NCBI GenBank assembly: GCA_030295235.1 | Contig: AP026136.1 | Location: forward strand, 1,054,001-1,118,000 | DNA length: 64,000 bases | Direction: 5' to 3' | Source: Fistulifera solaris | Taxonomy: Eukaryota | Shown: positions 122 to 45,331 of the stretch, in pieces | Numbering within the stretch: position 1 is the stretch's first letter | How the letters are laid out: every line of letters begins with the position of its first letter | Translations under genes and position numbers: made by a program | Notes under the pieces: generated by a model | Seen by the model: the letters and a program-made list of their open reading frames with translations, nothing else | What the model was told of the DNA's origin: nothing | The model's database searches: none

Positions 122-2002
122 TCTTCAAAACGATTACTCACGAATGAATAGTTGTGTAGTGTTTCTTTATATAATCCGTAATCCGTTCCAATTCGTAAGT
201 ACAAGTATAGGTCGATTGTCGTCGCAGTCGCAACAGTCGCAATAACGGCCTGCTCGGAAACTCATCGATGTGCTGAGAAAACGGGACTCATATTCATCAT
301 TTCAGTTAGACACGAGCAGCCCACTTTTTGTATCATTGTATTCATTCAAAATATCTGAAAGAGAAATCAGCTAGTCCACCCCCATCGCTAAAAAGTCAAA
401 AACACCGATACGATTGATTCAATTGAATGAAAGACGCTGTTTCTAGAGAGACTAGCATTCAATTCAGAATTTTACTTCTAACTGTGTTCCATGGCATGGA
501 AAATCAATACATCGACACCAAACAGGACTCGATTCGGACACGAGTAAACCATTACGGAGTATTTCGAAAGAAATTCTCATGCGTGTTCCTGGCAGTCCAA
601 CAAATACTTTGCGGCTCGAAGACGAATGATCAAGTGGATGTAAGTCGCCATCTTGCAAATCTTTTTCATGTTTGAATTTATCTCATGAAATCTCCGTTAT
701 TGTTTTCTACTGAAGTACAGAACCATGTTTTTGAAAAAAGAACTTCAAGTGCCAGACTTGTCAAATAACACTTACGTAGTAATTCATTTCCATATTTGCC
801 AGGCATATCGATGCGTCAATGTATAAAAACGCACCATGCTTTGAAGTATATGCCGACGACCGCACCGTTGAAAGCCGAATCCGCTCGATGCAAGTATCTT
901 TCTTAAAAAGATAATCTATTATGCTTCATCAAGTTTACTTTTTAATAAAATCCTCTAATCAAACCATCATTTGTCATGTAGAATTATACTGGGTCTGATC
1001 ATAACTACCCAAAAAATCAGAGGAAAGCTCTAGTGTCCTTTTCGTTCCGCAAGTTGGCACGTACTTGATTGGATTCAATCCATCGTCGCGGTAAATTTTG
1101 CAGCAGCGTGTGGTTAACGATGGGACGGCGTGATTTTTTGAAATGATGGTGGGTAGGGGGTTTTAACTGGGGTTTGTTTAGGGGCCTGTTCCAATTGCTG
1201 GGCTGGGTATCAAAGTGGAATACTCTTCGACACAGCTCTTCGCCATGGTTGACTAGGTCAACCAATCTTCTCGCGGAGTCCTGCCTAGCTTAGAAATGTC
1301 ATCACAGGTGATATTGATTTCTTATTTGAGTTAGTCAAATAAGGACAGTACATATATAGAGATTCTATAAAAGTACAGTCATGCCTTTATAATTAAAGTG
1401 TTGCCAACGTCGAAGGGACGAGTCTTCAACCAATCAAGCGCAGCACGTAAATTATGTAAAATTATGTCTATTATCCTACAAATTGGTGTGCACTTCAAAT
1501 GCTTGGTTGCGCGTCTACGTAACAAACAATTTTTTAACGGGCGATGCAAGACAACTGGATTTTGGCAACCTTAGTCCTAAGTCCTAAGCATGACTTAGTA
1601 GATGCAGCCCCATGGCTCAAATCTAGCATCTAGCGGCTACCAATAACCACTTATCCATTGACCGGCTGATCAGCTTCATTAGTTCGACATCGACTATCAG
1701 CACCTTTGAATTCCTCTCTTCTTATCCGTCAGGTTGATCTTGAATTCACGCTGCTGTTAAAGCAAATCATTTAAATCCTTCCTTCCGATGAGTGGCGGCG
1801 AGTGGCAAGTACAGGGTAGGTTCCATGAAATGCCCATAGCTCTAGCTTGAGAGATGATTGTGCAAATTATGAACATTGTGGTATGGTAATGGCAGTGAAG
1901 CTAGATAAATTTCTATAATCCAGATTTGCAATAATTTCCTAAAACATCTGACAATCTATGAACAAACCATTTCTCATGTTTATTATCTACGCTTCCAATT
2001 AA

Positions 2003-3511: not shown

Positions 3512-4127
3512 TTTTCGTAAAGCTTGTGCGCGGGAATTATTCACTGAAATATTCAACACAGATAAAAGAAGGTGCAATGATTAACTTCCAAATCACAATC
3601 ATATCAGTCTTTTCGATGCTGGCATCCATCCACCCCTGCGTTTAAAAGGCAAACAGCCAACACCGCAACAAGCAAACACGAACGACTGCTCCGTCAGAGT
3701 CTTGCTTTTAGTGTAGGGACCTTCCGGCGGCAAGAAAATGTACTTCTCCTGGTGCGGCGACTCTTGAAAATTTGATCCAACGCAAGCTAAATAGATTTGA
3801 ATCTTCACTAAGTGACAAACACGAAAATAGGTGTCATTATCCGTTGTAGAATTGTTCTTACGCCAAAGACTACTGCGTGACTTCGTTAGGAAATTAGGAA
3901 TAAATATTAGTATCAATTATTTGTTGAAAAAAAAGAATCACTGTACGATATACTGTAAAAGGGAGAAGGCCATAACCTTTAACCCTGATCATGTCCATGG
4001 ATATTGACTGTGCTAGAGGGCACGTTCATGCATCCAAAAATCACATCAATTATTTTGGCACGCACACTTTCGCCTCGGCTCGATTTCAGTTCTTTGAAAA
4101 CCATAGCGCAAAATCTTGAAAAGTTGC

Positions 4128-4967
4128 TCAAGACTCGGAAAGAATAGCGTCGTCAGCCTTCTGTAATCGCATGCTCGTTATGTACGATAATTCAGGGAAT
4201 TCTTGCAGTAGATAAGCGTTTCCTTTGTTTACAATCTGCCCTTGGTTTGGTCTCTCGCGATAATTCGAACTGATCTTATCAATATATTCCATTCCTTCTA
4301 TGACTTCTCCAATGGGAGCAAAGCCCTGTTGGTCGAGGGCTGCATTGTCGTTCAAATTGATAAACAGTTGTGTTGTTCGAGTGTTCTTCCCGGAAGTGGC
4401 AAAAGTGAGCGTCCCTCGTTTATTAGATTCTTTCACTGGATCATCTTGTAAAACTTTTGTTTTCCATTCCAACTGTATGCTTGGGTTGCCATTGATTCCA
4501 AATTGCACCACAAAATTCGGCAACACCCGAAAGAATCGACAATCGTCATAAAATTGTGCCTCGACGAGTTCCAACAAATGGGCTGCTCCGATCGGAGCCC
4601 AATCGGGACGAACTTCAATGATAACATTGTGCGGATCCGACTCACCGGTCAGACCTGCTAAAGTCATAACGAGACGCGGTGGGTGTTTTGTAACGACCGT
4701 GTCATCGGTTCCACCCGTGTCGTCTGTCTTTTCAGATGTGTGTCTCAAATGCTGTTCTTGTTGACGAAGTAATAATTTTTCCGGCGTACTGCCGCTTTTG
4801 ATACGGTACTGTCGTTTCGTACGAAAATGATCCATTTCAAAGAGTAATGCACAGAAAGCGAGCAGAGCCGTCATCCAAGCAATGACTTTTAACAATCGAA
4901 TGTACGAGCCACCCGTCGCTCGGGATCGCCGTATCCGTCGTTTCATTTGTTGAGGAGGCTTTTGCAT
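4128..4967 (-). CDS. Membrane-anchored cyclophilin-type peptidyl-prolyl isomerase
   Basis: Cyclophilin motifs FYDDCRFFRVLPNFVVQFG, SNKRGTLTFA..GKNTRTTQLFINL, GFAPIGEV; N-terminal TM helix. Confidence 0.93.
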   Translation of the reverse strand: MQKPPQQMKRRIRRSRATGGSYIRLLKVIAWMTALLAFCALLFEMDHFRTKRQYRIKSGSTPEKLLLRQQEQHLRHTSEKTDDTGGTDDTVVTKHPPRLVMTLAGLTGESDPHNVIIEVRPDWAPIGAAHLLELVEAQFYDDCRFFRVLPNFVVQFGINGNPSIQLEWKTKVLQDDPVKESNKRGTLTFATSGKNTRTTQLFINLNDNAALDQQGFAPIGEVIEGMEYIDKISSNYRERPNQGQIVNKGNAYLLQEFPELSYITSMRLQKADDAILSES

Positions 4968-5354
4968 TTTGATTATGAATTATTTTGCAAACGGATCTTG
5001 TGTATTATAGAGGCACAATGATCGACGAAAGAGGTCTTCTGCGAAAAAGACATGAAAGTGAAAAAAGGTCGGGACAGACACAAACAGCGGTGCGCGCGAT
5101 GCGGGGGGAACTAAATAAATAATTGCGACAGTCATGACGACGTATTACTCGTGACTGGTTAGTTCATTTTGCTCTTTTCGGTCCCCGTCCCCCTCGACTC
5201 AAATACTAAAAAGAGTAAGGTTTTGAAAATACGAAAGGAGATAGCTACAAAAAGAGAACAAGTAATCCTTACCAGTATGCTTGCATTTTGACTTGCTTTA
5301 AACCTACGTTCTTCATCCTTCTTAACCCCATGACAACCACACTCTGCTTTCGTC

Positions 5355-8300
5355 ATGGCGCGCAAAAAGGCCAAGGCTAAAGGCCCCGACACGCGGGGAT
5401 ACAATCAACAAAACAACCAGGATCAAGCTCCTCCCAAACGTAGCACACCGTCACATGAAGCCGAATTGTATGACGTCTCGAAACCCCGAATGTACACGCT
5501 TCATCTTACCAAAGCCATGGAAACTCAATTGCGAGAATTTCTGGGTGAATTTCCTTTGCCACAAACGGAGGCGCTTCCTTCGGATCGCTTTGGAAAACGG
5601 ATTACCAACATTTACGATCGACTGATCGATCTCGGTTTTGCCTTCCAAGATATCCAGCAAGCTGTGTTGCAGTTGCGTTATCACATCACTTTAGACCTAG
5701 CGCTAGACTGGTTGTGCTGGCATGTCGATGTTCTACCACCTCGATTCACGGACGAACGATTTGATGTATCAACAAACTCGTCCTCGGTCTGGGTGGAGCC
5801 GATGACTAAAGCAGTAAGGAGTGCAGAGAACAGTTCAACCGTGGAGACACGTTCTGTCGCTCCATTCGAGTTTGCTTCGCCTGGGACTCCTTACAAGAAA
5901 ATGCAAGGAGAGGATCGAAGTGATGAAAATGATACTTCCATGTCGGATGCACATAAGCAGTGGCTGCTCTCGCAGTATCAATACGAGGAGGAAGACGAAG
6001 AGACAGAAGCTGAAAATGACCTAAGCATGCCGCTAGACGATTCTTTATCGGGCACTATACTACGCGAAGATGATGAATTGCACCGGGATAGATTGAAACT
6101 GAAGCAACTCAAGGTGGAATTGGAGCCCCTTGAATCGCAATTGAATGACGAGGCGTCGTGTTATATGATGAGTAAGCACGAACTTAAGGCAATGCGCGGT
6201 CGTGTAAAGCCTCTCAAACGTCAAATTAAAGTGCTAGAAGAGAAAATTGCGGGTCGAGAAAGGAAGCTTGCACTCCAAAGTCCCGTTCATGAGCTGTCAG
6301 TAGACGAGGATTGCGAAGAGGACAGTCTGCTAGATATTTTTAGTATGAGCATCGAAGACATCAATCCTAGCATTGATAAGTCCATGTCCTCGCAAATGAA
6401 ACAAGGTGCCGGAGACGAAGACACGCAAACTATTCCTAGAGATTCCGTACCAAAATCGTGGACGGGGATGAAACCCAAAGCTCTTCTCGAAGATTTTTGT
6501 CGACGACAAAAGCTTCCTCAGCCATCATTTCAGCGTATGACGAAAACCTCGTGTATACTAAGAATGAAGGGTTCGACGGGTGAAGGAAAAGTGGCAGTGA
6601 TTCATCAGGATGGCCCAACTCTTGCTGACGCGCAACATTTCGCTGCAGCAAAAGCATTGTTTCAATTAGATTCTAAGGCAAATATTCAACACCTTCTGCC
6701 TCCTTTTCATCGCCAAGTTTGGTCAGAATGGAAGAGCTCGGCGAAATTGACGGAAAATAGAATTAAACTAGATGAGGGGGGCGAAACGTAGAAACGAAAT
6801 CGACCAGCTTTTGAACCAGTTAGCGAAAAATGACGAGATTGGTCGCCAAAAGTATGCCTTCAAGAAGGAAGAACATGGACTAGATGACTTAGTAGATATG
6901 AAGGAACAAAGAGAACATTCATGGGAGGAAGTGAAAGAATCGAGCTTGAGCAGTTCAGCTCGTTTATGTCAAGAGAACATTCAGCTTAAGAACGAATTCG
7001 AGACCATAGTTAAGTCCGAGAAGTATCAGAGGCATCTAGAACTGAGAGAGAAACTTCCCGTTTACGGTTTTCGAGAATCAATCCTAGAAGCAATCGAGAA
7101 TAATCCGGTCACGATCATATCCGCAGAGACGGGAGCGGGAAAGACTACTCAGGTTTGTTAATGTATTTTCTGTCCCAGTACGTGTTGTAATTGAGTCTAA
7201 GGTCTTTTGCAGGTACCACAGTTTCTCTTATCGACTGCTTTATTGCAAGGAAAAGGTGGTCACACATCAATAATATGCACACAGCCTCGAAGGGTTGCCG
7301 CTACATCTGTCGCTGAGCGTGTTGCGGAAGAGGTTGGAGAGCGGTCTGTTGGCGGGTTGGTCGGCTATCAGATTCGAATGGAAAGTTCCAAATCGAGTCG
7401 AACAAAGCTTCTCTTTTGTACAACAGGTGTTATCCTGCGTCGACTAATCGAAGACCCTTTGCTGAACGGTGTATCTCACCTGGTAGTTGATGAAGTTCAC
7501 GAACGCCAGTGGCAAATTGACGTTCTCCTCATGTCGCTTAAAACACTCATGCAAGGGAGACGACCGGATTTGAAAGTAATTTTGGTAAGTTGTTCCAGGC
7601 TTTGTCTTCATTGATTATCAACTTAATACTCACAACAACACTAAGATGTCAGCCACACTTGACTCCGGTCTTTTCTCGTCTTACTTTTGGTCTGCCCCTG
7701 TGTTGAGCGTCCCAGGGCGGACCTTTCCAGTGAAGAATTACTTCTTGGAAGATCTGCTCGAAAAGACAGGGCACATCATCGAAGAAGATTCTCGATACGC
7801 TCAGAGAAGCTTTGCACGAATGGATACGGTTGATTTACGGGTAACGGAACGTAGGGGGCGAAAGAGACGCGATGTCGCCTACGTGCAATCGCAGACAGAT
7901 ATAGAAGTTTCAAATGAGTTTATGGGTTACTCGGTGTCTACGCGAAGGTGAGTTCCTTGAATTTATATTGCGCAATACGTTATCGCTGTACTAACTCGTT
8001 TGTTGTCAAGATCGATGGATAGAGTCGATGAGACGATCCTCAACTATGACTTGATTGAAGATGTCTTGGAGCTTCTCTTCTTCCATTCAAACACATTCAC
8101 AACAACGGAAAATGCCGAAGTAAAAAATGGAGCTGTACTAATTTTTCTTCCTGGCTTGCGAGAAATTCGAACTTTAATGGATCGACTATTAGGAAGTACG
8201 ATCTGCGGCAAAAACGAGAAGTTAGAGGTGATACCATTGCATTCATCGTTGTCATCAAAAGATCAACGGCGAGCATTCAAGCCAACAAGCAAAGGGTACC

Positions 8301-9634
8301 GAAAAATCATCATTTCAACAAATATTGCGGAAACTAGCGTTACAATTCCGGACGTAACATGTATCATTGATAGCGGGCTGGTACGAGAAATTCAGCGCGA
8401 CCAACGGACTGGCACGCAAAAGCTCGTAACGACATGGTGTTCGAAGGCAAATACAAAGCAGAGGTGTGGACGAGCAGGTAGGGTACAACCAGGGATATCG
8501 TTAAGACTCTTTTCGTCAAAGACTGATGCTCTGATGAAAGGCGTCACTGAACCAGAATTGAAGCGAATACCCTTGGAAGAAGTTTGTTTAACAATTTTAG
8601 CATCAGGTCTGTCAACTTCGTGCAAGTCCTTTCTTGCAAATGCTCCTGAACCTCCTTTGGCATCCGCCATCGAGCTTTCATTAGAAGATTTAAGATGCAT
8701 TGGTGCTATATCGATTGAAAAACGTGACGGAATTAGCTCCGACGGCCCTCGCGAAGAGTTGACCGCGTTGGGTGAGCACCTTGCAAAGATACCGATCGAT
8801 GCAAGATTGGGGAAAATGCTTATATATGGAAGCATGTTTCAATGCCTCGATCCAGCGCTAACTCTAGCTGCGTGTCTCTCTGCATCCCAATCACCTTTCG
8901 TTTCGTCATTTTTGGAGGGTGATGAGGTTAAGGCTGCGCATTCTTCATTTCTTGATACTTCATCGGACTTCGTTACTTTGCTCAATGTGTGGGAAGCTTT
9001 TGTGTCTGCCGGGTCCGCAGCACGCCAATTTTGCCGTGAAAAGTATTTAAATTACGATGCTTTTCTTGAAATTGCAGATGCACGTGACCAATTCTTAGCT
9101 CATCTGTGCAAAATCGGGTTTGTCAATCGAAAAGGTTTTGATGACGGCCAAGGAAATTACAACTCTCAGAGCAAATCACCTGATGCGATTCATTTTGTCA
9201 TATGTGCCGGACTTTATCCAAACGTGGCCATGATAGAATCTGACTTGGGGCTTGTCCACAAGACGGAAAAGGTTGCTATACACAACAGTTCAGTTAACGC
9301 GAAATCACTGAAAGATCGTCCATCAGACTGGGTCGCATTCCATGAGAAACTAGGAACGGGGCGCCAGATCGCAATATCAACCACATGCTTTGTACATCCT
9401 TTCTCATTATTTCTACTTGGACCAATGGTTCACATTGATCATAATTTAGGAAAAGTCGAGATAGACCATTGGATCAAACTTACTTTGTCTGGAAAAACGG
9501 CGGTGCTGTTAAAAGGACTGAAACATCGGCTAGAATGGTCTTTGAAAAATTGCATTCAACAAGTGAACGCTGAAAGCAATGTTTCTGATTTAGACGTGAT
9601 TGACAAAATCATCTCTATTTTATGTCAAGTCTAG
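5355..9634 (+). CDS. DEAH-box RNA helicase, DHX29/DHX57-like (UBA-like, dsRBD-like, helicase, HA2, OB); introns 7153-7212, 7585-7645, 7948-8010; apparent frameshift at G6 6776-6781
   Basis: [44 protein letters not shown]. The GT..AG introns restore frame; removing one G joins the 478-aa and 129-aa ORFs. Confidence 0.92.
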
Positions 9635-9730
9635 AAAATCATTGCCAAATTGTTTTGCAAGATAGGAATATGAGTGAAGTGTTCAGACCATCAGAAAAGA
9701 TTCTGCGTTCCGTAGTATGATCGTCTGAAT

Positions 9731-12391
9731 TTACATCGCAGCATTCGGCAGTTTACTACCTCTTTGAGTTTCAATAAGGCTGACAATATTGTCGTAGCCC
9801 GCTTTGGACAGCGCCTTCTCTACTTCGTCAAAGAAGCTCGATTCTGGCTTCTCTTGAATTCGTCCCTCATTGTACATGGTCCAAAGATCAAGCAAGATGT
9901 GACCGGCTTGGGAAACGGCCCCAATCTTTATTTCTGCTCTCGCCCAAAATTCAAAAGAGGTGCAATTTGGAAACACATTCTTAATACCCCTTGCGTCCAG
10001 CGCTTTCATCTCTTCGACAAGTCCTTGTATCCTGGCTGTCGCGTCAACATTATCGGACGTTAAGCACGAATAGATAAGACTGTTGAAAGCATCGGCATCT
10101 GGCACCAGCCCAAAGCCTGACATATTTCGAAGTAACGCCTCAACTTTTTCTACTCGACAGTCATCTTCCGAATGAGCGATTTGCCTCATGACTGATTTAT
10201 ACCTTCCGATCCCGGGTACGACGGCTGAACGCTTTCTCAGAAAATCTTCGTGCATTATCAAGAGGAGGTCGTATGCGTAGTCAGCGCGATGCTGGCGTTG
10301 GAACAGGTTTAATACCCGATCACACAAAATACCGCTCAAATCAGGCGATTTGCATTGCCTTAGTCGATGTGTTCGCATGCTCGTCACCAAGGAATATGCT
10401 CGTTCTACTGCCGTAGGAAGGGACGATCTTGCCCAACAAGAAAGAACGGCGTCATAAATCTGAGCATCTGGAGGAGGAGCAAGACCTGCTCTGTACAAAT
10501 CTAGCAACATCTGCACGAGTTCGTCAGCTTTCAGCGCAGCGTCGCGTGCATAAGATCTATCCCAAGCGGAGAAGACGAGTCCAAAAAGGTCGATCCGAAC
10601 TCTTCCTAAATGTTTTTCCTTGGCTAACGTACATAATCTCATTAAGACATCATGCGCAACTTGCGGCTGGTCAGCTTTAGCAAATGCCAATAGAATTGCT
10701 TTCAGTTGCATATGCTCGGGCTGCTGCCCAAATGCATTCTCCCGACAAAACTCCATTGCTTCCCATACGAGCTCAGTGGCTCGATGTAATCCATCGTTTT
10801 GCAGCAAGAAAATCTGAATAAGCATTGTGTAAGAGTAGAAATCTGGTGGAGATTTCGTGCTCCTCTTCATTTCTTGAAACAAGGAATCGGCTTCCTCTCT
10901 AGCATTGACTGCCCTGTTGTTTGCGTAAAACAAAGATGCCAGCATAACGTTGTAGGTTGCCGTATCTGGACCCGAGTCCAGAAATCCGAAATGGTATAGA
11001 TCCTTTATCCGTTGAAATAACAGGCGTGTTCGGTCTACATTTCCTGCCCTCGACCATGCGTCCATTAAAGTGGTTAAAAGCGTAAGAGAAGGCTTCAAGT
11101 CTTTACGACCGTTTATAAACAACGAGTACACCTCGTCAACTAGGTCTTGAGCCTTCTCAGGCTGTGATGCTTTAGCAAAAGCGTTGGTGACAGTAGCATA
11201 AGAGAATAGATCAGGTGGAGACTCTAGCTGTCCTCCGCTGTGTAGTTCCTTCATCTCTTGCAGCAAAGTTAGACAACGATCTGCTTGACCAGCTCGAGCC
11301 CAGCAAGATAAAACGGTGTTAAATGTTTTAACATCAGCTTGAACAGGCGGAAAGGTCTTTGGGTCATACATGCGTGCTAGGAGAGATTGAACGCGTTCGG
11401 CGGCGTTACCGCCGTGTGACCTCGCCCAAGCCGAGATGACAGTGTTCCAACTAACGACGTCCGGCTTGGGTGCACTTCCCTTCCAATCCAGTAACGGATA
11501 TCCTTCCTGAAGTTGCCATTGCTCACACATGTCTTTCAGCAACTGTTCCGCAGCCTCCCCGTTTCCAACTTTGGCGTAAGCCGCCAACAAGCAATTATAA
11601 GACCGAATGTCCAATGGGATGACGTGTTGCGCTCGTTCCAACAGTGCCCGCGCCCGATCCGGTCGTGCACAAGCCGTCCAAGACGACAATACCTTATTTA
11701 ACGCTTTCGTTCGTGGATGAAACGACCCAAGAGACGATGCATTTGGCTGATTTAATTCGGTCATCCGATCCAGCACTGTCTCGGCAAATGCAGCCTCTGT
11801 GACAGATTTCAATCGCTTTGCCCTTCTTGAGGCTACACCCAAGATGACCTGCAAAGAGGAGCCCGAAAGTTCAAGTGTTGGACTTTCATTACACCACCGG
11901 TCGACTGTTGCGAGGAGCTGTGCCGGCAAGATGACACGCTCGCCATTGTTTTCTTTGATTGAATCATGCACACTTTCCCAGTTTTCCACAAGACGATCAA
12001 TGATTTGCCAATCCAGAAAATCTGAGGAAATAGTAGTGTTTCCTATCTTCTGTTCATCTACCAGTCTCGAAAGGAGAAGAATTGACATTTGCACAGATAA
12101 CGGTGTCTTTTGATAGGTCCACCATTCGAGTTGATCTTCAGCGCTATTCCAGATGCTAGAATCGTTCGTACCCGAAGGAGTCTCTAGCAAGAACCTCTTT
12201 GTCCTTTCTAAGATATCACGATCTTCCGTATAGGTTTGTGAAGCGTATGAACGATGTTTCTTCCAGGAAAGTGTAGAAGATCTGGGGGGTTGCAAAAATT
12301 GACACGTCCGAGCGGATGGGACTGCAATCGTATTGTAGTGCGCGCATGTCTTCTTTACAATATTCGACGCCGCCAGCCGTTGTCGAAGCAT
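9731..12391 (-). CDS. Pentatricopeptide-repeat protein, probably mitochondrial
   Basis: Multiple 35-aa PPR motifs (PDVVSWNTVISAWARS, DVKTFNTVLSCWARAG, PDLFSYATVTNAFAKA); Arg/Ser-rich N-terminus from MLRQRLAAS. Confidence 0.9.
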   Translation of the reverse strand: MLRQRLAASNIVKKTCAHYNTIAVPSARTCQFLQPPRSSTLSWKKHRSYASQTYTEDRDILERTKRFLLETPSGTNDSSIWNSAEDQLEWWTYQKTPLSVQMSILLLSRLVDEQKIGNTTISSDFLDWQIIDRLVENWESVHDSIKENNGERVILPAQLLATVDRWCNESPTLELSGSSLQVILGVASRRAKRLKSVTEAAFAETVLDRMTELNQPNASSLGSFHPRTKALNKVLSSWTACARPDRARALLERAQHVIPLDIRSYNCLLAAYAKVGNGEAAEQLLKDMCEQWQLQEGYPLLDWKGSAPKPDVVSWNTVISAWARSHGGNAAERVQSLLARMYDPKTFPPVQADVKTFNTVLSCWARAGQADRCLTLLQEMKELHSGGQLESPPDLFSYATVTNAFAKASQPEKAQDLVDEVYSLFINGRKDLKPSLTLLTTLMDAWSRAGNVDRTRLLFQRIKDLYHFGFLDSGPDTATYNVMLASLFYANNRAVNAREEADSLFQEMKRSTKSPPDFYSYTMLIQIFLLQNDGLHRATELVWEAMEFCRENAFGQQPEHMQLKAILLAFAKADQPQVAHDVLMRLCTLAKEKHLGRVRIDLFGLVFSAWDRSYARDAALKADELVQMLLDLYRAGLAPPPDAQIYDAVLSCWARSSLPTAVERAYSLVTSMRTHRLRQCKSPDLSGILCDRVLNLFQRQHRADYAYDLLLIMHEDFLRKRSAVVPGIGRYKSVMRQIAHSEDDCRVEKVEALLRNMSGFGLVPDADAFNSLIYSCLTSDNVDATARIQGLVEEMKALDARGIKNVFPNCTSFEFWARAEIKIGAVSQAGHILLDLWTMYNEGRIQEKPESSFFDEVEKALSKAGYDNIVSLIETQRGSKLPNAAM

Positions 12392-34741: not shown

Positions 34742-35289
34742 GGCAATGAAGCAATCAAAGTAACAGAGATCACAGCATAAACAGTTGCTTGATAAGAGAA
34801 AGTGAGAGCTGAAAAGATGTCTTCTGTCGTCTTTTCACTGGTTCAATGAGCTGAATCTACTCGTATTTCTTTATTTTAGGAGTGAATAGCCGGGGTAATT
34901 ATTTTGTCGTAGACATGTTCTTTCGAATTATTTTGTCGCGTCATACGCCGAGCCCTCAACGAGAGACTATATGCTAATGTGTAGTATTCTACGGATAGCG
35001 GAGTATCTTTCATCTTTTACTATTGACCATTGACTAAGTAACGGTTTTATACCTTATGTTGTTCGAAAGAGTCTTTGTGTCTTTGTCCAAAAGCCAAAAG
35101 CGCCTTAAACCTTAAACCATAAACGTCCGGATGATGTTCTGTGTTCTCCAGTTCTCCACTTCAATGTGATGTGTATTGCTGTATTGCTCATTGCTCGGTT
35201 GTCGGTTGTGTCTTCTTCGCATCAAATAGGGTACCTGGTAGGGTAGGGGTAGGGGGTAGGCATACTTCACGCTTCTGCTCTTTACTCTT

Positions 35290-35429
35290 TACTTCTCTTC
35301 CAAGAACGAAGAATATAAAATACGTACACCTTACACAGTGCTGAAGTTCCCGTGACTATACTTCTCTTCCAAGAACGAAGAATATAAAATACGTACACCT
35401 TACACAGTGCTGAAGTTCCCGTGACTATA
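35290..35429. repeat. Perfect 69-bp tandem duplication
   Basis: TACTTCTCTTCCAAGAACG...CCCGTGACTA repeated at period 69. Confidence 0.95.
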
Positions 35430-35702
35430 ACGTGAGCAAAGATGACTAACCTGTAACCTTGATTAGAGTTGACGATGATTAGTTTGGCGATTGGCGATTG
35501 GTGACTGACTGTAAGGCGCACGTTATACCTGGGAGCTTGGCGGAAACTGCTCACTCCGAGCGGTTTCAGAATTTCGACCTTGTATGTCGTACCGTTATAC
35601 ACCCAATTAAAAAGGAACTTCTTTTCGGCGATAATTGTTTACTCTCAGCGCGCGGAACGGTTATATTACTTAGCAGTTGAAACGTGTTAAAAGTTTATTA
35701 GC

Positions 35703-35822
35703 TAGAGAGAGAAATCTCTCTATAGAGAGAGAAATCTCGCTTTAGAGAGATTTTTCTCACTATAGCGAGAGAAATCTCTCTATAGAGAGATTTTTCTCTC
35801 TATAGCGAGAAAAAATCTCTCT
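35703..35822. repeat. Left subterminal array: six 20-bp palindromic units TAG(A/C)GAGA-(GAAA/TTTT)-TCTC(T/G/A)CTA
   Basis: Exact 20-bp period from 35703; each unit is an 8-bp stem with a 4-nt loop. Confidence 0.93.
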
Positions 35823-35998
35823 TCTCGAAATGCACGTGTGTCCAAATAAATATTTCAATTAAGGTTAAACTTGATCCGTCAATTCATTTTTCTCCAATCA
35901 AGAATCATCCAATGAACAAACACAAAAACAAAAAGACTTCGGAGTTGTACACACTCTTCTATTTAATGAACTACAATTCGTCCTCGAATATCTACTCA

Positions 35999-37164
35999 TC
36001 AATCAACCTCTTCAACAGGCTCATCGGGGCTGAGCTTTGGAAAGACGAATAGCACGTTTGCAGGCCGAGTGCCATTCTTGGCTCTGTGTGCTGGTTTACG
36101 ACGATCCAATTTCAACTTCACTTTTGTTTTTACTGTTACAGGCCCGCTTTTGATCCGTGGCTCATCTTGGACAAAGTTTGTCGTCTCCATGCTGACTGAA
36201 GAGTCTGGCGAGTTTCCGCGGTCTGGGGCTGCTTCGTTTTCCATCAGCAATAATGTGCCGCTATTCTCAACAAGCCCGTCATCGTCTACTGGGGCCATTT
36301 CAAGCTGAAGCATCCGATTGCTTGCCCGTTCAAACTGTTGCATGTCATGATCCACTGCGCTCTCGAGCCGCAAGATGGCCTGTTGTTCGTCAGCGAGCTG
36401 TGACTGCAGAAGCCGTAATCGTTCACTAATCCAGCCTTGTTTAATCTCCAGTGCATCTCGGTTGCATCTCAGTTCATTGAAAGCGTGCTAGAAACATTCC
36501 ACTCATACTCGTCCAACATGGCTTTCTCTTCAAGCTTCAGGACCGCATGCTGTTGTCCAGCCGCATGTGCATGAAGCTGCTGCAGTTTTTCCCGGCCTTG
36601 TTTCAGCTGCATCTCTAATCCTTTCAGTCGCTCATTCTGCTCAAGAACTCGATTCTTTTGATTGTGAAGCTCGCGTTCATTGTAGTTGACGCTGTCTTGA
36701 GGGAGCAACACTGCACCTTGCTTGTCAGTCAGCTGTGCATTGAGAAGCTGCAATTCGCCTTGTTTGTTTGCTTTCTTGATTTCAAGAGCATTGACATCTT
36801 CAGTCAACACACGAAGGTGCTCGGCTTTTTCTCGCTTCTTCTGGTTGCTGAGAGTAACAAGTCGCTCGAGCAACATTTTCTCTTGCTCTTTCACTCGAAT
36901 CTGTTCTTCGACGGCTTGAAGATGCGCTTGATCTAGACGGAGGCTTTCCGTGGATTCAACGGAATATTGCTCGAGCTTGATACGGTCGTGCTCAACCTGC
37001 TGAAGGCTTTTCAGAATCTGATCGCGTTTGAGATGGACATCTTTGTCTTGGCACTGAACTTCTTCCAGTTTTGTGAACAAGCCCGACTTTGCCTGCTCCT
37101 GTTGTTTGAGGAGATGCCGTGGGTGGTCATCTTCTTCCTTAAGGTCCTGTGTGTTGCTTGCCAT
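35999..37164 (-). CDS. Transposon ORF-A: long coiled-coil protein of about 390 aa with basic tail (frameshift about 36480)
   Basis: Q/E/K/L heptads from MASNTQDLKEEDD. A single-base change joins ...NVSST to FNELRCNRDALEIKQGWISERLRLLQSQL and ORF 35999-36373. Confidence 0.7.
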
Positions 37165-37283
37165 GCTTGCCGCGAACGTCAAGAGTAGAAGGCGGATCAA
37201 TTCGCTTGTATGATCGAATTGATGCTCGATGATAGTATGATAAATCTGTAGTAACATAGACAAGTCAAAATTGAAGAATTAGC

Positions 37284-38678
37284 TTAGTTGGTAGACATAG
37301 TATCATCGCTGCTGTCGTCGTCTGAGTTACCTTCTTCGTCACTCAATTCCAAGTCTAATTCTTGCTCACGTTCCGCGTTCGACTTCAAAGTTTCTTCCGG
37401 CAAAGAGCTTCTTGTTCACCCAACAACTGGCCAGTAGTTTCTTCTCCGCCCGACTTGCGTGGCCGAGCGCTTCTTTTGCTTCGGGTCTTTGCTAGTGTTA
37501 TGGATTTTCATCATACGCTTCATCCGCTCTGCCAATTCATCTAGCTTATCCTTTTTAGCAGGAGTTGAAGTTTTCTCAAAAGAGTCATCAATCTGCACTC
37601 GCCACATCACGTAGATAACGGTCCACTTCATCTTCTTGAACTTGGTAGGCAACACGTGCTGAATCGCCGTCAGCTCGCTTCCATGGATCTTACTCTGCCC
37701 ATCTGAGGAACCGGCGATCATCAAACACACAGCACTTGTGATTCAAATTGAGCTGGACGGTGCGAGTTTGAAGTACGGGGGTTTCACGGCTTTGTGGCAA
37801 AGGTCTGTGTCATCGCCATAGCCTCGCCGAAGTACATGTCGGTCGCTTGCCCATACTTGTCCTCGTCCCGTTCAACGTCGGCCATGATATCAGGATTCAT
37901 GTAGAAATATGCCGGTGCCGTCGGAATGGTAAGGCTAATGCTCATACCATCCGGTGCCAGCCGTGCAGAATACTTCCCAATGTCGTTTGGATCGAGAACA
38001 GGCAAGCGCCAAATCAAACGCTTTCGCAACCCCCTTCTTCCGAGTCATGTGCACAAACGGAGTAGCTATCCCGAGGATGCTTTCCGGATACAAGCGGTTT
38101 TGGAACACATCGACCTCAATCTCAACTACGTCGTCAAAAAGCAATGACGCCATGTTCTCAGTCGCCTTTGCAAATGATCGAGGCAACGAGCTTGTTTTTC
38201 TGCGCTGCAGGTGAAGACTCCAATGCAATCAAAGTGTCTTGATCACTGGAGGAGGATGAAGACTGGCTTGAGGGACTGTCTGGACTGGTGTCTGAATTGT
38301 CTCGATCTGTAGAAGGGCGGATACCAGCTTTCTCTAGCACTGACTGGTAATCTTCAATCGAAAGTAATCTCCACTTGGCTGTAATGTGTTAGAAGGAGCT
38401 TTGAAAACAAGAAGAATAGTAGGAAACCATACCTTTTGAATTTTGTTTTCCACTTGGCGTTTTCCTCTTTCGCCTCACGCCGTAAAGTCGACTCTTGGAC
38501 TTGATGAGATTTCCCAACTTGAAGCGGGGCTCTCGGCTCAAATCTTTCGTAAAGCCTCCGGCTTGTTCGATGTCGCGAAGAAGCTCGTTGAGTATTGGCT
38601 CTGGAAGTCCGAACGAAGAGAGAGAGCGCTGGCTTGTTTTGTTGATGCAGATCTAGTTGCAGAGGATGATTTCTTCAT
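37284..38678 (-). pseudogene. Transposon ORF-B: putative Myb/SANT-like partner protein, several frameshifts, intron 38379-38432
   Basis: Fragments GLPEPILNELLRDIEQAGG..FKLGNLIKSKSRLYG..(RQVENKIQK in an alternate frame)^KWRLLSIEDYQSVLEKAG, Ser-rich linker, beta-rich C-terminal part, acidic tail; divergent from the transposase. Myb assignment is inference. Confidence 0.65.
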
Positions 38679-39240
38679 CTCCGCAAAAATAATGCGTTCT
38701 GAGTTCTGAATCTGGTTGATCTGGGCCTCTTTTGGACAACGATGTACGATGTATCATGTATCCTTGATGTTCAGGGTTTTCTGTTCTCTCAAACTTCGCA
38801 AGTCGCAAGAATCCTAAAAACGTCCGCTTTATTTTAATTTTGTATTGCCCTAATGCCTAGTTGCGTAAGAACAGAAGCCGCTATCGTATGAAGTGTAGCA
38901 AATTCGTTTTCTAGATATGCCAGGTTCCTAATATATCGAGTTACTGTTTCATCCTAAATCACGAATTCCTAAATGAGTGTCTTGGGGCAATAATAATTGC
39001 TCGGTAAAAAGTGACAAACGACAACGACAAAACACAAAACACACGTTGATCAAAAACCAAAAACATTATCATTGTTTAAGTTTCCTTCAAGCAACTTTCA
39101 CTTTTCAGCTTTTGTTGCATTGATTCTGATGATTCTGATCGAAGAAACTTTGAAGGCTGACAATCTGTGTGACTAAATCAACAAAACCTACCCGGGGCCC
39201 GCTTTGCTTCTTGTTCTTTCAACGCTCTTTTCTGGCTACA

Positions 39241-40261
39241 ATGGCCTTTCTCTTTACACCCAAGGAGATGATGGTGAAAGGCCTTCTCTTGATACCCAGC
39301 TATGATGTCAGTCGCATTAAAAAGCTCTGTCAAAACACCAAGCTGAAAGACTTTAAGCATTGGTATGGAGCAACGCCGGAAGTTAGCAGCGCAATTTGGA
39401 AAGATCTCCAAACGTGTGACAATGTCTCGAATCGAATCAATCCACGAAAGGTAAGTTCCTTGCACTCGATCACAATAAAAACACCATACCTCTAAACCTT
39501 TACATGGATAGGCTCGTGTGGAATACTTTTTCATGTCTTTACATTTCTTGAGAAAGTATCCCACAGGTGAAGAACAAGCGAAGTTGTTCAACATCAATCG
39601 AGAGACGGTGTCGACTTGGACATGGTTCTTTCTCGAAAAGATCGCAGTCTTGGAGAGCCAGAAGATTGTTTGGCCGAAAGAGTGGGAAAAAGAGCGGTAC
39701 GCTGCTGCAAGGAAGAAAGGGAAAGACCAGCAAGATGTCTATGCTGTTAGCTTCGGATGTTCGGTCGATGGAACTCATGGTCGTATCCACGAACCGTCAG
39801 TGGGAGAGCCGCAGTCAAAGAACCCAATCTACTTCTCGCACAAATCTCATGGACCTGCCTTTGCTTACGAATTTGCAATAGATATTTTCCAAGATCGTCT
39901 TGTTTGGATGAATGGGCCTTTTCCTGCGTCTACCCCCGATAGAGAAATCTTCAAAAATGGTTTGATGAAAATGATACCCGATGGTATGCGTGTTGTGGCA
40001 GATAGCGGATACTCGGGAGAGAAATTGAAGCATATTATTAGTGGCCCAAATCCCCGTGACAGCAAAAAGTTGCGTAAATTCAAGTCGCGAGCAAGGTCGC
40101 GTCAGGAAGATTTCAATGCGCGTCTCAAGAACTACAAGATTTGTGCCGAAACGTTTCGCCATGATCGATACCGTAAAAAGAGACACAAGGCATCGTGGAC
40201 AGCTGTAGCTATTATATGCCAGTATCGAATTGAGCATGAAAAAACGTTTTGGAGTGTTTAA
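39241..40261 (+). CDS. PIF/Harbinger-like DDE transposase (DDE_Tnp_4-type); intron 39451-39511
   Basis: Spliced 319-aa ORF with HTH (FLRKYPTGEEQAKLFNINRETVSTW) and catalytic SVDGTH, YFSHK, GPFPAS, VADSGY, RSRQEDFNARLKNY. Confidence 0.92.
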
Positions 40262-40327
40262 AGAAAGATAGAAGAACTAAAGTTTTCAATGCTGAACATT
40301 GAGCAAACCACTATTTATACATTGTAT

Positions 40328-40867
40328 CTACTTCTTAGATTTCTTACTCTTCTTCAACTTCTTTGATTTAAGATAAGCTATGAAGAGCTCGCGACGTTTC
40401 TCTTGCCCGATATGCTGGCGAAACGTACTGCGATCGAAAACTTGGTACGCCAAATTGCTCAGGTAAAGCTTCTTAAAACCCAACGATTCGTCAAGCTTGG
40501 CTCTCACATCACAACGAAGCAATCGTTGAGCTTCAGATCCATCCCAAACAGGCTTTCCACGCCTATCAATTACTTGCTTGGGGAACACGGTACGATCCCG
40601 ACGAAGAGCATCTTCGTCCGCGGCCGCAGAGGCATACAGTTCGAGATGCTCCTTCCGAAGTCTTTTGAGGTTGGGAGAGAAGTTCTTGAAAGCAAACTGC
40701 TGAAAAAGTTCCCGCCGATCAGAAAGATTGTAGACCTCTTCCGCTGACATTTTGGTTGAGTCAATAGGCACGTGGCCGCTCACAAGATCATTGACAAGCT
40801 GCTTCTTCGCTTTGGACTTTATCCAGAGGTTTCCTTCCTTATCCTTTGGTCCCTCCCTTTTGGCCAT
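40328..40867 (-). CDS. Transposon ORF-D: 179-aa basic protein with two homologous helical halves and an NLS-like tail
   Basis: Intact ORF convergent with the transposase; W..S.A...L..D repeated twice; tail KSKKLKKSKKSKK. Confidence 0.82.
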   Translation of the reverse strand: MAKREGPKDKEGNLWIKSKAKKQLVNDLVSGHVPIDSTKMSAEEVYNLSDRRELFQQFAFKNFSPNLKRLRKEHLELYASAAADEDALRRDRTVFPKQVIDRRGKPVWDGSEAQRLLRCDVRAKLDESLGFKKLYLSNLAYQVFDRSTFRQHIGQEKRRELFIAYLKSKKLKKSKKSKK

Positions 40868-41089
40868 TTTTCGATGCAGACCTTTTAAAAGAAATTCCGG
40901 CTGATATCAAATTACTCTTTGTTGAATGGAAACAATCTTCTTATTTCAATGGACTTGTCAAGAAGAACAAATACGGAGTATAATGTGTTTTGAGTGCGAC
41001 GAGTTTTCGTCGAGTTCGTTAAACATTGAAAAGCCTTAATTAAAAAGCGTCATATTTTCTGTTGAGGTTCGTGGCGTACTCATTTGCGC

Positions 41090-41147
41090 TAGAGAGAGAA
41101 ATCTCACTTTAGAGAGAGAAATCTCACTATAGAGAGAAATCTCTCTA
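41090..41147. repeat. Right subterminal array: three palindromic units of the same 20-bp motif
   Basis: TAGAGAGAGAAATCTCACTT, TAGAGAGAGAAATCTCACTA, TAGAGAGAAATCTCTCTA. Confidence 0.92.
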
Positions 41148-41417
41148 TGGCAACAAGCAAAATTACATAGGGAATAAGGTGATTTACTATTATTGTATAA
41201 AACGTGAACTAGAACCGGATGCTGGTTGATACAGTTGTGTACTAAATTGATTCTTTTGTGTGATGACATGTCATATAGACTAAAAGTGTAAAGATCTTGT
41301 CACGGAGAGACTTCCGACAAGCACCCTGGTACATTTTCATCATTCGATCTTGCTAAAAAACGCTTGTAATTACATTGTATGTTGGAAGGTAATAATTGTT
41401 GATTCATAAATAAAAAA

Positions 41418-43145: not shown

Positions 43146-43453
43146 CAGTTTTAGTAAATGGACATTCATTGAAATACCCGAACGAAGCAGTCGATGCACG
43201 CATTAGAATCCGTGAGGCACAACACGAAACACTTAAAAGTTAGAAAAGGCCTCTCCGACATCTTGCATGACATAACTGTAACCTTAATGCTAGAGCACCT
43301 CATCATTGCGCTTTCAAAAAGCGCATCATTTTTGCGCAGATTTTGCCTCTGGAGTTCCATGCATCATGTTTATATAGTAACTTTGAATCCGAAACTACAA
43401 AACAGGCAGATTGAATCATTTTGTATGCACTTCGTTACCGTACCTTGCAGAAA

Positions 43454-45331
43454 ATGAGTTCTGACGACGATAGCAGCGATGATCGACACCTCTGTTCCGG
43501 CGGACTGTCGAAGCTTTCGAGAGATAAGCAAAACGGAACAGTAATCCAACGACCACCTATACGAGCAAAATTAGCGTATGATTCCAGTGACAGCAATAAT
43601 GAAATTGTGGTGATGCCACCGATGAAGAGTGCGATATCATCAGTTTTAACTTCGGGCCCCAGACTCACTGCTACCGGCTCTAATACCCGCGATCCTGTCA
43701 ACATGGCAGATGATGAATCGTCGTCATCGTCATCGTCATCGTCTGATGACAGCACTTCTCCGTTTAAATCCACTTTAGCTCAGCGTCTAGCCCGTCGCAA
43801 CGAGGCAGAAAAACTTACATCGAATGCTGCGCAAAGTAATGTGAAGCTCAAGGATTCGGAAAAGTCAAACCCATCAAACAGAAGCAGCAACCCAGTGCGA
43901 AAAGAAAACGCACATTCGTCGCAAGAAACCACCTACTCTATCGAAAACAAAGTAGGTCGCCTTAATATGGCTAACAGTCGACCCGAAAATTTGCCATCGC
44001 CCGCAAGTTCTAGCGATGAAAGCATTCGTTTGATGACGATAAGTAATGGTCAGCGAGCCATTGAAAACACTACAAAGTACACCTCACTCAATAGTGATAG
44101 TGACAGCGACGACTCATTGCTTGCGTCCTCGCAACTGAGGAATAACAAACCAGCTTCACGAACAGCACCAAGAAAAAATCCCATCCTTGCCAAGAAACCA
44201 TCTGTGAAAGCCCAACAAAAGGAGTTAGCGAAAGAGATGAGAGAACAAGTCCGTCGGGACAAACAGTTGGCGAAAGAAATGGAAAAAGATCTACGACATC
44301 AACAGCGAATAGCCAAACAAGCTGCGGCTCAGGCAGAGAAAGATGATCGGAAGCGTCGACGCATCGAATCGGAACAGACACGTGGAAAACGCGCGATTGA
44401 CGAACTGGCTATTCTAATGGAGCATTCGCTCTGTCATCACCAAGAGCTTACGCTTCGAAACGATCTGCAGGAAACAGGCTTTCTTGTTGATAGTTATCCC
44501 AGCGGCTTGGGGGGTGATGTAGTTCAATTCATTCGATGTGATTACGTCTTTGGTGGAGGAGCACGAGCGGTCGAAATGCTCAAGCAAAGCAAACGAGAAG
44601 AGTACCAGCATCTCCCTATTGTTGGCGTTGTATTTCACGATCCGATGAATTTCATTTCGAAGATAGAACGGGATGCACACGACGAAGACGATGATTATCC
44701 AAAGCTGGAATCATTTCTGAAAGGTCTTGAAGTCGGATGGCGAGCAGCATGGCGAGTTGGTGCAGAGCAACGTCCACGATTCATTTTCTACCTGAACAAC
44801 GTACATGCGACGCTGGATCAACTTTGGGTGAAATCTCGGAGAAAGGACCAGTCCATGAAAGCTCCTCCAACTGGCGAAGAGCTTCAAGATGCCTTGATCT
44901 GGCTGTCCATTCAGTTCTGTGTCGACTGTATTCACTATCTTTGCCCCGAAGATCTGTCGACACAAATCACCAAAATGGCTGTGTGGTTGGCACGTGAACC
45001 GTACCAACGACAAATGACGGACCTGGAATGCGCCAAGAAGACAAAAATGCTGTGTTCTGACATGGATCCGCCTCTGGTTCGGTCGCAAGACTGCTGGAGA
45101 CGCCAGCTTTGTCAAGTTCCTGGAATTAGCGAAACCATGGCATCATCAGTTGTTAGCTATTTCCCTACCATGCGTTCCTTATATCTCCGTTACCAAGACA
45201 CTAGTCTGACGGAAGATCAAAAGATTCTTCTTCTTGCCGACTGTTTTGGACGTGAAGGACGGCGAGATGTAAAATGTTCAGATGCTGTCTATCGAATACT
45301 GACGAGCAAGAACCCGAACGAGCTGATCTGA
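43454..45331 (+). CDS. EME1: Crossover junction endonuclease regulatory subunit EME1/Mms4-like
   Basis: Disordered N-terminus, charged helix, ERCC4-like domain, C-terminal HhH WRRQLCQVPGISETMASSVVSYFPTMRSLY..LLLADC. Confidence 0.82.
   Translation: MSSDDDSSDDRHLCSGGLSKLSRDKQNGTVIQRPPIRAKLAYDSSDSNNEIVVMPPMKSAISSVLTSGPRLTATGSNTRDPVNMADDESSSSSSSSSDDSTSPFKSTLAQRLARRNEAEKLTSNAAQSNVKLKDSEKSNPSNRSSNPVRKENAHSSQETTYSIENKVGRLNMANSRPENLPSPASSSDESIRLMTISNGQRAIENTTKYTSLNSDSDSDDSLLASSQLRNNKPASRTAPRKNPILAKKPSVKAQQKELAKEMREQVRRDKQLAKEMEKDLRHQQRIAKQAAAQAEKDDRKRRRIESEQTRGKRAIDELAILMEHSLCHHQELTLRNDLQETGFLVDSYPSGLGGDVVQFIRCDYVFGGGARAVEMLKQSKREEYQHLPIVGVVFHDPMNFISKIERDAHDEDDDYPKLESFLKGLEVGWRAAWRVGAEQRPRFIFYLNNVHATLDQLWVKSRRKDQSMKAPPTGEELQDALIWLSIQFCVDCIHYLCPEDLSTQITKMAVWLAREPYQRQMTDLECAKKTKMLCSDMDPPLVRSQDCWRRQLCQVPGISETMASSVVSYFPTMRSLYLRYQDTSLTEDQKILLLADCFGREGRRDVKCSDAVYRILTSKNPNELI

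Follow-up and report, generated by a model that had tools for sequence, protein, structure and literature searches.

A two-module basic protein encoded within a diatom Harbinger-type transposon as a probable partner of its transposase

The window analysed here is a stretch of 64,000 nucleotides from Fistulifera solaris (GenBank assembly GCA_030295235.1, contig AP026136.1, positions 1,054,001 to 1,118,000 of the forward strand), and all coordinates are counted from its first letter. It holds a 5.8-kb transposon at 35532-41325 with three genes, which encode a transposase with a DDE_Tnp_4 domain, a small basic protein that we call ORF-D and a larger protein, ORF-X. ORF-D is, with near certainty, a factor encoded by the element itself. 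Our results indicate that it probably works as the accessory (helper) protein of a cut-and-paste transposon of diatoms that belongs to the Harbinger/PHIS elements, in the place of a Myb-like partner.

The reading frame of ORF-D is uninterrupted, with 0 internal stops across 179 codons, and its product is strongly basic (43 Lys and Arg versus 24 Asp and Glu; pI 10.08). The C-terminal end of the protein, KSKKLKKSKKSKK, is a run of lysine and serine residues and a candidate nuclear localisation signal (NLS). Both properties are common among the relatives described below: at least 5 Lys or Arg occur in some 10-residue window of the tail in 79 of the 130 family members whose tail has at least 12 residues, and the pI exceeds 8.5 in 89% of 152 members. 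A comparison of ORF-D with Pfam returned 0 families at E≤1. Contigs spanning ORF-D alone (40404-40906 and 40413-40728) were present in two small sequencing runs; we do not take them as evidence of expression.

A single ORF-D sequence cannot establish an internal duplication. Local alignment of the two halves gave a score of 26, and shuffled sequences gave a mean of 26.9 (standard deviation 4.8), with 1110 of 2000 shuffles reaching 26. The duplication became visible, in contrast, through family profiles. Alignment of 67 relatives revealed a consensus, W..S.A..LL..D...G...M.P..(V/L)Y..R.E(F/Y)..(F/Y)..F, common to both halves, and W15 and A113 were invariant among the 67 sequences. When the profile of residues 10-78 was compared with that of residues 100-172 using hhalign, the two matched with a probability of 98.1% (E 1.2e-13, 51 columns), in a register that pairs W15 with W108, S18 with S111, A20 with A113, L24 with L117 and D27 with D120. 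Shuffling of the half-2 columns 30 times gave 15.1% at best (E 0.0018) and at most 2% in the remainder. Because the family consensus, the profile match and the shuffle control agree, the alignments indicate that the two modules of ORF-D are homologous and that the duplication is real and ancient.

The AlphaFold2 model of ORF-D, built on the 67-sequence alignment, had a mean predicted local distance difference test score (pLDDT) of 96.5 and a predicted template modelling score of 0.74. The order of elements was the same in both modelled halves: a pair of bridge residues six positions apart (8 and 14; 100 and 106) is followed by a helix 11-12 residues long, some short helices and, last, a helix spanning 33-35 residues. 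In module 1 this last helix (60-94) continues into the linker, and module 2 modelled alone gave the same picture (pLDDT 91.0). Each module is thus predicted to be a three-helix bundle, and the matching element order in the model, taken with the 98% profile match, stands in for a superposition of the halves. An earlier reading of this DNA, made from its sequence without database searches, had described ORF-D as an intact small basic protein, built from two copies of an unrecognised helical module and ending in a Lys-rich tail. That description held in each of its parts, including the register of the repeat that it had drawn; the module is helical in the model, with no match in Pfam and weak ones in the fold search reported below.

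Far from being an orphan, ORF-D is a member of an unnamed family of very large size. When 1.84 billion cluster representatives were searched exhaustively with HMMER, 1363 proteins matched at E≤0.001, 412 of them at E≤1e-10. These relatives are mostly 160-300 residues long and match near full length, most of them over ORF-D residues ~8-175. The hallmark of the family is a pair of homologous W..S.A...L..D modules joined by an A..D..AL..DR helix, and ORF-D fits it over its full length. Some relatives, such as the database proteins P0007, P0008, P0039 and P0135, carry two to four copies of module 1 ahead of one module 2, which brings the module total to three to five, and members of 430-443 residues with additional module 1 copies were also found in the exhaustive search. 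The module therefore behaves as a repeat unit. Longer fused forms were sought with the family alignment and none appeared at E≤0.001, a weak negative because the candidate list of that search was crowded with long proteins. Pfam searches of 67 family members at E≤0.01 gave one stray match each in 3 of them and no family in common; no Myb/SANT/MADF and no FF domain was among the matches. The family profile found no PDB sequence at E≤10. An entry for ORF-D in a protein atlas consisted of a poor model (pLDDT 0.44) with no usable feature match, and all its structure rows had a template modelling (TM) score below 0.4.

The transposase gene adjoins ORF-D tail-to-tail, with a gap of 67 bp. Its product matched PF13359 with 39.3 bits (cutoff 24.8) and carries no further Pfam domains, and a profile hidden Markov model (HMM) built from 70 diatom-type transposases matched both of its exons (E 8e-85 and 5.5e-15). 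Organism names were attached to 4 of the 120 transposase relatives listed, and all four were diatoms: Fragilaria crotonensis (twice), Mayamaea pseudoterrestris and Seminavis robusta.

A scan of metagenome contigs from the Joint Genome Institute yielded 34 loci with ORF-D relatives of 24-45% identity, which carry L numbers below. The query was an alignment of 11 sequences, and the pattern RG[EKV]P[RV]W[ED]GS in module 2 biases this sample toward one part of the family. With the transposase profile, a homologue was detected on 12 of the 34 loci. Nine of these have the full-length gene (L005, L007, where it is frameshifted, L018, L019, L024, L028, L029, L030 and L031), and L001, L009 and L012 have the first 105-123 transposase residues only, directly upstream of ORF-D. 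Among the 15 loci of at least 3 kb, the full transposase is present in 9. Four of the six others are near-identical to carriers and stop before the transposase site (L003 resembles L005, L015 and L025 resemble L018, and L032 resembles L029); the last two, L027 and L033, gave no transposase match. The pairing recurs in at least 7 diverged lineages, and the comparison of loci indicates that it persists despite differing gene order. The two genes are convergent and adjacent in the window and L005; the transposase lies upstream on the same strand, 2-4 kb off, in L007, L018, L019, L024, L028 and L030; and the genes are convergent and 5 kb apart in L029 and L031. Across 7 elements, the pairwise identities of ORF-D correlated with those of the transposase (Mantel r 0.83, a value reached by 17 of 5040 permutations), a correlation much of which is driven by the close pair L028/L029. 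No Myb/SANT/MADF domain was found by Pfam in 59 open reading frames (ORFs) from the window and 14 related loci, a set made up of the 53 longest of 225 listed flanking ORFs of at least 100 residues (14 loci) and 6 window ORFs; DDE_Tnp_4 and a few host genes were found in it.

The three loci with a truncated transposase are diverged short contigs (L001 2-1007, L009 26-1045, L012 21-870), in which ORF-D follows the transposase fragment on the same strand after ~10-135 bp. The ratio of nonsynonymous to synonymous substitution rates (dN/dS) between L001 and L009 is 0.23. They may represent a lineage of short elements that keep the N-terminal domain of the transposase together with ORF-D.

Comparison of ORF-D genes between diverged copies with measurable dS gave dN/dS values of 0.15-0.41 (for example, 0.19 for L011/L013), and near-identical copies gave values of ~1 or undefined. 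These values indicate that ORF-D is under purifying selection, in the pattern usual for a gene required by a transposon lineage.

The boundaries of the window element were read from the sequence and from contigs of a public sequencing run in which 97% of sampled words of the window were present. These contigs depart from the window at 35528 and 41328. The inverted ends are 14 bp long and agree at 12 of 14 positions, CTG abuts both of them, and the target context is palindromic (TAC-CTG-GTA). A target duplication of TA or TTA was considered and rejected, since the flanks TAC-CTG-...-CTG-GTA are those expected of a palindromic target with CTG duplicated, and L019 confirms the CWG type. Locus L019 is a complete element of 10.3 kb (511-10825) with ORF-D inside an inverted repeat of 85 bp and with CAG on both sides. 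Its ends begin with GGT, and those of the window element with GGA and GGT. Between ORF-D and the right end, L019 has several more large ORFs without a Pfam match, and cargo is therefore variable in this group. Divergence points of single ends were located in six further loci, at CAG (L006) and CTG (L008) for the right end and at CAG for the left end (L028, L029, L030 and L032). Searches for inverted ends in L018, L029 and L030 gave weak scores only (17-22), and the L015/L025 copies diverge within a repeat unit and have no usable right end.

The depth of the public run was two to three times higher over the ends of the window element than over its interior, as expected if shorter copies share these ends. 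In one contig of sequencing run X1, position 35813, just past the left array, is joined to 41305, which lies 21 bases short of the right end; the 5491 bases in between are absent, and the shorter side of the junction has 22 letters; it is possibly a miniature derivative resembling a miniature inverted-repeat transposable element (MITE). The database protein P0005 (109 residues) fuses the N-terminus of ORF-D (82% identity over 39 residues; window 40748-40864) to the C-terminus of the ORF at 35999-36373 (69% over 75 residues; window 36002-36226), and is the product of a copy of this element family, located elsewhere, that has undergone an internal deletion.

Because the transposase of the window is spliced and the L005 gene is uninterrupted, the predicted complex was obtained with the intact L005 pair, a transposase of 305 residues and an ORF-D relative of 180 residues. 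Co-folding gave a score of 0.68 (median of three runs), versus 0.01 for the best of 3 controls, with a contact agreement between runs of at least 77% and a partner pLDDT of at least 76. The mark used for such predictions is reached by 51 of 78 solved complexes and by 2 of 108 mismatched pairs and, in eukaryotes, by 39 of 65 solved pairs that have no similar complex in older structures, as well as by 2 of 126 unrelated pairs. The predicted interface comprises residues 66-84 of the ORF-D relative and residues 139-143 and 221-249 of the transposase, in its catalytic domain. Invariant alignment columns set an offset of 10 between the two numberings, so that the interface helix corresponds to residues 76-94 of ORF-D. 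It contains the near-invariant D84, D91 and R92 and is the most conserved stretch outside the modules, a conservation that the predicted docking on the transposase would explain. On this model we consider it likely that ORF-D binds the transposase.

Short subterminal tandem arrays, which are candidate binding sites, recur in related loci, and the sequence of their unit varies by lineage. The 20-bp unit of the window element occurs 8 times in the 64-kb window, where 0.02 occurrences were expected, and only in the two subterminal arrays. The element represented by L006, L007 and L008 has 12-bp units, 13 in L006 and 8 in L008 downstream of ORF-D, inverted with respect to 3 at the other end in L007. 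Copies of the unit TGGAGCCAAA occur in both orientations; they precede the transposase in L018 and L024 and follow ORF-D in L015 and L025. The unit GTGTCAGAGA lies ~170-280 bp inside each end of L019. Palindromic units were seen in L012, L020, L029 and L032. Across lineages, a unit of ~10-12 bp is the common denominator, and the 20-bp palindrome of the window consists of two such half-sites.

The third gene, ORF-X, encodes a larger low-complexity protein with an N-terminal domain of ~70 residues (LP..I.KQLL.DIE..GG...R.KV.NKV..WK) followed by a sequence rich in Ser, Pro and Thr. The domain matched 21 ORFs of related loci at E≤1e-6 and was present in all lineages examined; the match of window 38392-38652 is weak (E 3.5e-4). 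In 11 loci, ORF-X is head-to-head with ORF-D. ORF-X is thus a conserved third gene that travels with the transposase and ORF-D, in the window and among loci L002-L034. Kinship between this domain and the ORF-D module was tried and rejected (hhalign probability 0.25%). The domain had no Pfam match and no usable match in the protein atlas, and a profile search of the PDB returned only fibrinogen, at E 1.7. An X1 contig of 4962 bp spans 36178-41125 and differs from the window by 8 bases and 28 gap letters. Of the indels listed, the 11 inside its span all fall in 36482-38476, in the ORF-X region; a twelfth, at 41130, is beyond the span, and 6 further ones are unlisted. The transposase and ORF-D are free of listed indels. 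Because the listed indels inside the span all fall in the ORF-X region, the frameshifts that the sequence-only reading had noted in two frames, ORF-A and ORF-B, may reflect errors of the assembly or a different copy, and the organism itself may have an intact ORF-X.

The features of the element are collected in Table 1. Outside it, a 69-bp unit is present twice in tandem at 35287-35424, with 99% identity between the copies, ~100 bp beyond the left end, and a host gene lies just to the right at 43421-45331 (plus strand), where a 636-residue ORF matches the EME1/MUS81 C-terminal domain (E 4.5e-07). This gene and the short GT..AG intron of the transposase agree with an origin of the window from a eukaryotic nucleus.

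Table 1. Coordinates of the transposon and its genes in the window.
Feature	Position	Strand	Basis and remarks
Left target-site duplication, CTG	35529..35531		Read from sequence; in other copies, contigs depart from the window at 35528
Left terminal inverted repeat, GGAGCTTGGCGGAA	35532..35545	plus	Local score 32; shuffles mean 17.6, maximum 30
Left subterminal array, 20-bp palindromic unit TAGAGAGAGAAATCTCTCTA	35703..35818		5 units (≤2 mismatches) within 35703-35802, then a degenerate remainder
Third gene ORF-X, in pieces in this assembly	35999..38652	minus	N-terminal domain (LP..I...LL.DIE.AGG) in 38392-38652; coiled-coil piece 36469-37263; C-terminal piece 35999-36373
Transposase exon 1 (gene model from first ATG)	39241..39450	plus	N-terminal region; positions 4-76 of the diatom transposase profile HMM
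Transposase intron, 61 nt, GT..AG	39451-39511	plus	Read by eye; the uninterrupted L005 gene agrees
Transposase exon 2, including stop codon	39512..40261	plus	DDE_Tnp_4 domain, E 6.4e-10
ORF-D coding sequence, including stop codon	40328..40867	minus	179 aa, pI 10.08
Lys-rich C-terminal tail (residues 166-179), candidate NLS	40331..40372	minus	Sequence and family tally; putative NLS role
Module 2 (residues 97-172)	40352..40579	minus	RG.P.W108.GS.A...L..D, then three-helix bundle; last helix long, 146-178
Conserved inter-module helix (residues 76-94, motif A..D..AL..DR)	40586..40642	minus	Equals residues 66-84 of the L005 relative (predicted transposase interface)
Module 1 (residues 10-78)	40634..40840	minus	W15..S18.A20...L24..D27; helices 19-30, 42-46, 52-55, start of long helix 60-94
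Right subterminal array, 3 units	41090..41147		223 bp upstream of the ORF-D start codon
Right terminal inverted repeat (reverse complement GGTGCTTGTCGGAA)	41312..41325	minus	Matches left end
Right target-site duplication, CTG	41326..41328		Three contigs of other copies diverge after 41328

The mechanism that we propose is patterned on Harbinger3_DR and its Myb-like protein. ORF-D would dock on the transposase, at its catalytic domain, through the joining helix A..D..AL..DR; its two modules would recruit the transposase to the element ends by reading the repeat units of ~10 bp that lie close to each of them, and the basic tail would take the pair into the nucleus. That ORF-D is the reader of the subterminal repeats has, in our estimate, slightly less than an even chance. 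The sequence-only reading had proposed a non-canonical partner for a Harbinger transposase, and this part is well supported: ORF-D lies inside the inverted ends, its homologues stand beside DDE_Tnp_4 genes in related loci, the scanned ORFs carry no Myb/SANT domain, diverged copies are constrained, and the L005 pair reached the co-fold mark. The analysis went beyond that reading in finding a huge family, a conserved third gene and a CWG rather than a TWA duplication.

Several observations weigh against this interpretation. Both DNA binding by ORF-D and its fit to palindromes are what we infer. The repeat units of related elements are mostly plain sequences of 10-12 bp and not palindromic, so that the link between the pseudo-symmetry of the protein and a palindrome, which the sequence-only reading had put forward for the arrays of the window, is not general. 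The complex expresses model confidence for the L005 pair, whose proteins are 40% and 45% identical to those of the window, and 7 of 44 blindly drawn neighbour pairs also reach the mark. No transposase is seen on 22 of the 34 contigs, most of which are too short to show one. DNA binding could fall instead to ORF-X, which has a small helical domain as well. Foldseek comparison with the PDB returned nothing at E≤0.001, either for the whole ORF-D model or for module 2 alone, and the fold matches obtained otherwise are weak and include FF domains, which bind proteins, so that the modules may not contact DNA.

These fold matches come from a VIA-align comparison with 48,161 chains, in which the best Z was 5.6 for the whole model and 5.3 for module 2; by the guidance of the tool, a meaningful match has a Z of ~8, and lower values reflect only a common three-helix arrangement. 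Homeodomains (14) and SANT/Myb-type chains (7) together made up 21 of the best 50 rows for module 2, many of them DNA-bound; chains of these two kinds account for most of the weak best matches of the modules (Z 4.1-5.6). DUX4 gave Z 5.3 (root-mean-square deviation, rmsd, 3.5 over 62 residues), and engrailed, CRX, PBX1 and TGIF1 gave Z 4.9-5.0. SANT/Myb chains matched ORF-D with Z 4.1-5.0 and rmsd 2.5-3.5 over 51-74 residues, which does not surpass the matches of homeodomain or FF chains; among them were the SANT domain of DNAJC2 (Z 4.9), Chd1 (4.8-5.0), Myb R1 (4.3) and TRF1 (4.2-4.5). FF domains matched half 1 (4fqg, 2e71, 2dof) and half 2 (2kis, 2k85, 3hfh) with Z 4.3-5.1, the tandem FF chain 3hfh_B reaching Z 5.1 with rmsd 3.1 over 70 residues. 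The helix-turn-helix domains of the IstA, Tc3 and P-element transposases matched at comparable Z.

The FF matches open the way to a different account, which we consider unlikely. ORF-D would bind the transposase without being the DNA-recognition factor; its FF-like, protein-binding modules would regulate or chaperone the transposase or recruit host factors, and ORF-X or the N-terminal region of the transposase would read the repeats. FF domains are among the best structural matches of both halves; the order of helices in the module (helix, helix, short helix, long helix) is theirs, and tandem FF domains are likewise joined by one long helix. Conservation of the ORF-X domain in every lineage examined and retention of the transposase N-terminal region beside ORF-D in three short derivatives would also suit it. 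Homeodomain and SANT/Myb matches, however, are equal or better and commoner, the 67 members scanned have no FF match in Pfam, and the strongly basic charge of ORF-D and most of its family speaks against it. The same short derivatives, L001, L009 and L012, retain ORF-D and have lost ORF-X. A family as large as this one, absent its transposase on most of the contigs sampled, might also be a host gene family that merely stands beside this transposon copy or was captured by it. This explanation is close to refuted, given the recurrent pairing in diverged lineages with different gene orders, the position of ORF-D within inverted ends both here and in L019, the P0005 fusion of its N-terminus with the C-terminus of ORF-X, and the high copy number with neutral decay among near-identical copies, which is the pattern of a transposon gene.

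Quite improbable, in our judgement, is that ORF-D is a canonical Myb/SANT-like Harbinger partner that has diverged past sequence recognition, in which case it would be a plain Myb-like protein with two repeats instead of a new module; descent of ORF-D from Myb/SANT partners in whatever form is likewise unlikely. Its bundles have SANT/Myb matches (Z 4.2-5.0), and two tandem repeats recall the R2R3 layout. Structural Z, on the other hand, fails to separate SANT from homeodomain or FF; the Pfam searches of ORF-D and of the 67 members gave no Myb/SANT/MADF match at the thresholds stated, and the family profile found nothing in the PDB. The Myb pattern is one of three spaced aromatic residues, one per helix, and the modules of ORF-D have, unlike it, one conserved Trp each, ahead of helix 1. 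Such partners are described as evolving fast and hard to find by BLAST (PMC9710019), and the elements with CWG duplications described as NuwaI have a Myb/SANT partner (PMC4482050), both of which would favour such divergence; the length of 300-400 residues quoted for Myb-like partners (PMC9710019) argues against it, ORF-D having 179.

If ORF-D is the helper protein, a wider proposal can be put forward tentatively, with the balance somewhat against it. The family would be an unrecognised class of transposase-recruiting DNA-binding proteins, widespread among diatoms, with a new three-helix module unrelated to Myb/SANT. Together with ORF-X it would define a distinct three-gene group of CWG-target Harbinger/PHIS elements, in which module number (two to five) and repeat unit would co-vary as a lineage-specific protein-DNA code. 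Harbinger-type transposons are defined by their need for two proteins. The second is Myb/SANT-like or, in ISL2EU, YqaJ-like in every group described in PMC4482050, and an unnamed family of 1363 representatives with no Pfam entry probably takes that second place in the diatom elements. Hundreds of hypothetical diatom proteins thereby gain a context, and CWG-targeting PHIS elements extend beyond animals. The literature on Harbinger/PHIS elements that we searched, which did not take in Repbase, contained no description of the ORF-D family or of these diatom elements, and the article text of PMC4482050, apart from its supplementary tables, makes no mention of diatoms, Phaeodactylum, Thalassiosira or stramenopiles. 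The transposase, the helper and the repeat arrays make a compact system, which might be tried out in diatoms as a genetic tool, and with a confident model and a predicted interface the mechanism lends itself to direct testing.

Among known domains, the tandem FF domains of Prp40 and TCERG1/CA150 resemble ORF-D in their helical modules of ~60 residues, their helix order, the continuous joining helix and weak structural matches, and differ from it in that no sequence match was found and Z reaches only 4.3-5.1. FF domains bind phosphopeptides, and we know of none from transposons. Homeodomain-like domains give the best structural matches of a single module and share with it a long last helix with conserved R/H/Q and a basic arm, R-G-.-P-.-W, before helix 1; their Z is, however, far below the level of relatives, there is no homeobox match in Pfam, and the conserved positions differ. 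The closest functional parallel is the Myb-like partner of PIF/Harbinger elements (SANT/trihelix/MADF), known from zebrafish Harbinger3_DR and from host derivatives such as NAIF1 with HARBI1. The protein of Harbinger3_DR is described as binding a 9-bp subterminal motif and the transposase, and as required for the nuclear co-localisation of both (PMC9710019). ORF-D resembles such partners as the second gene beside a DDE_Tnp_4 transposase inside an element with short subterminal motifs, and in being a small, basic, helical and predicted transposase-binding protein. It differs from them in its W..S.A...L..D modules, in having no Myb/SANT/MADF signature in Pfam, in its size of about half the usual and in the company of a third conserved gene, ORF-X. 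A transposase with a Myb/SANT protein is the arrangement reported for PIF/Harbinger, Pangu, NuwaI and NuwaII, whereas ISL2EU carries a YqaJ protein and Spy is without a second protein (PMC9710019, PMC4482050). The DDE_Tnp_4/IS5-type transposase, the inverted ends and the 3-bp target duplication place the window element with the PIF/Harbinger (PHIS) superfamily. A TWA duplication defines PIF/Harbinger proper (PMC4482050), and the element here departs from it with CTG/CAG and with no Myb/SANT second ORF found by sequence. In its target duplication it agrees with NuwaI, reported by Han et al. (2015) from 16 animal genomes only, with CWG duplications and inverted ends that usually start with GGG (PMC4482050). 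The likeness to NuwaI lies in the CWG duplication (CTG on both sides in the window, CAG on both sides in L019, and six single ends), in ends that begin with GG and in a DDE transposase without other Pfam domains, and it is a likeness of features. NuwaI, in contrast, comes from animals and has a Myb/SANT partner, whereas the elements described here are diatom-like and carry ORF-D together with ORF-X.

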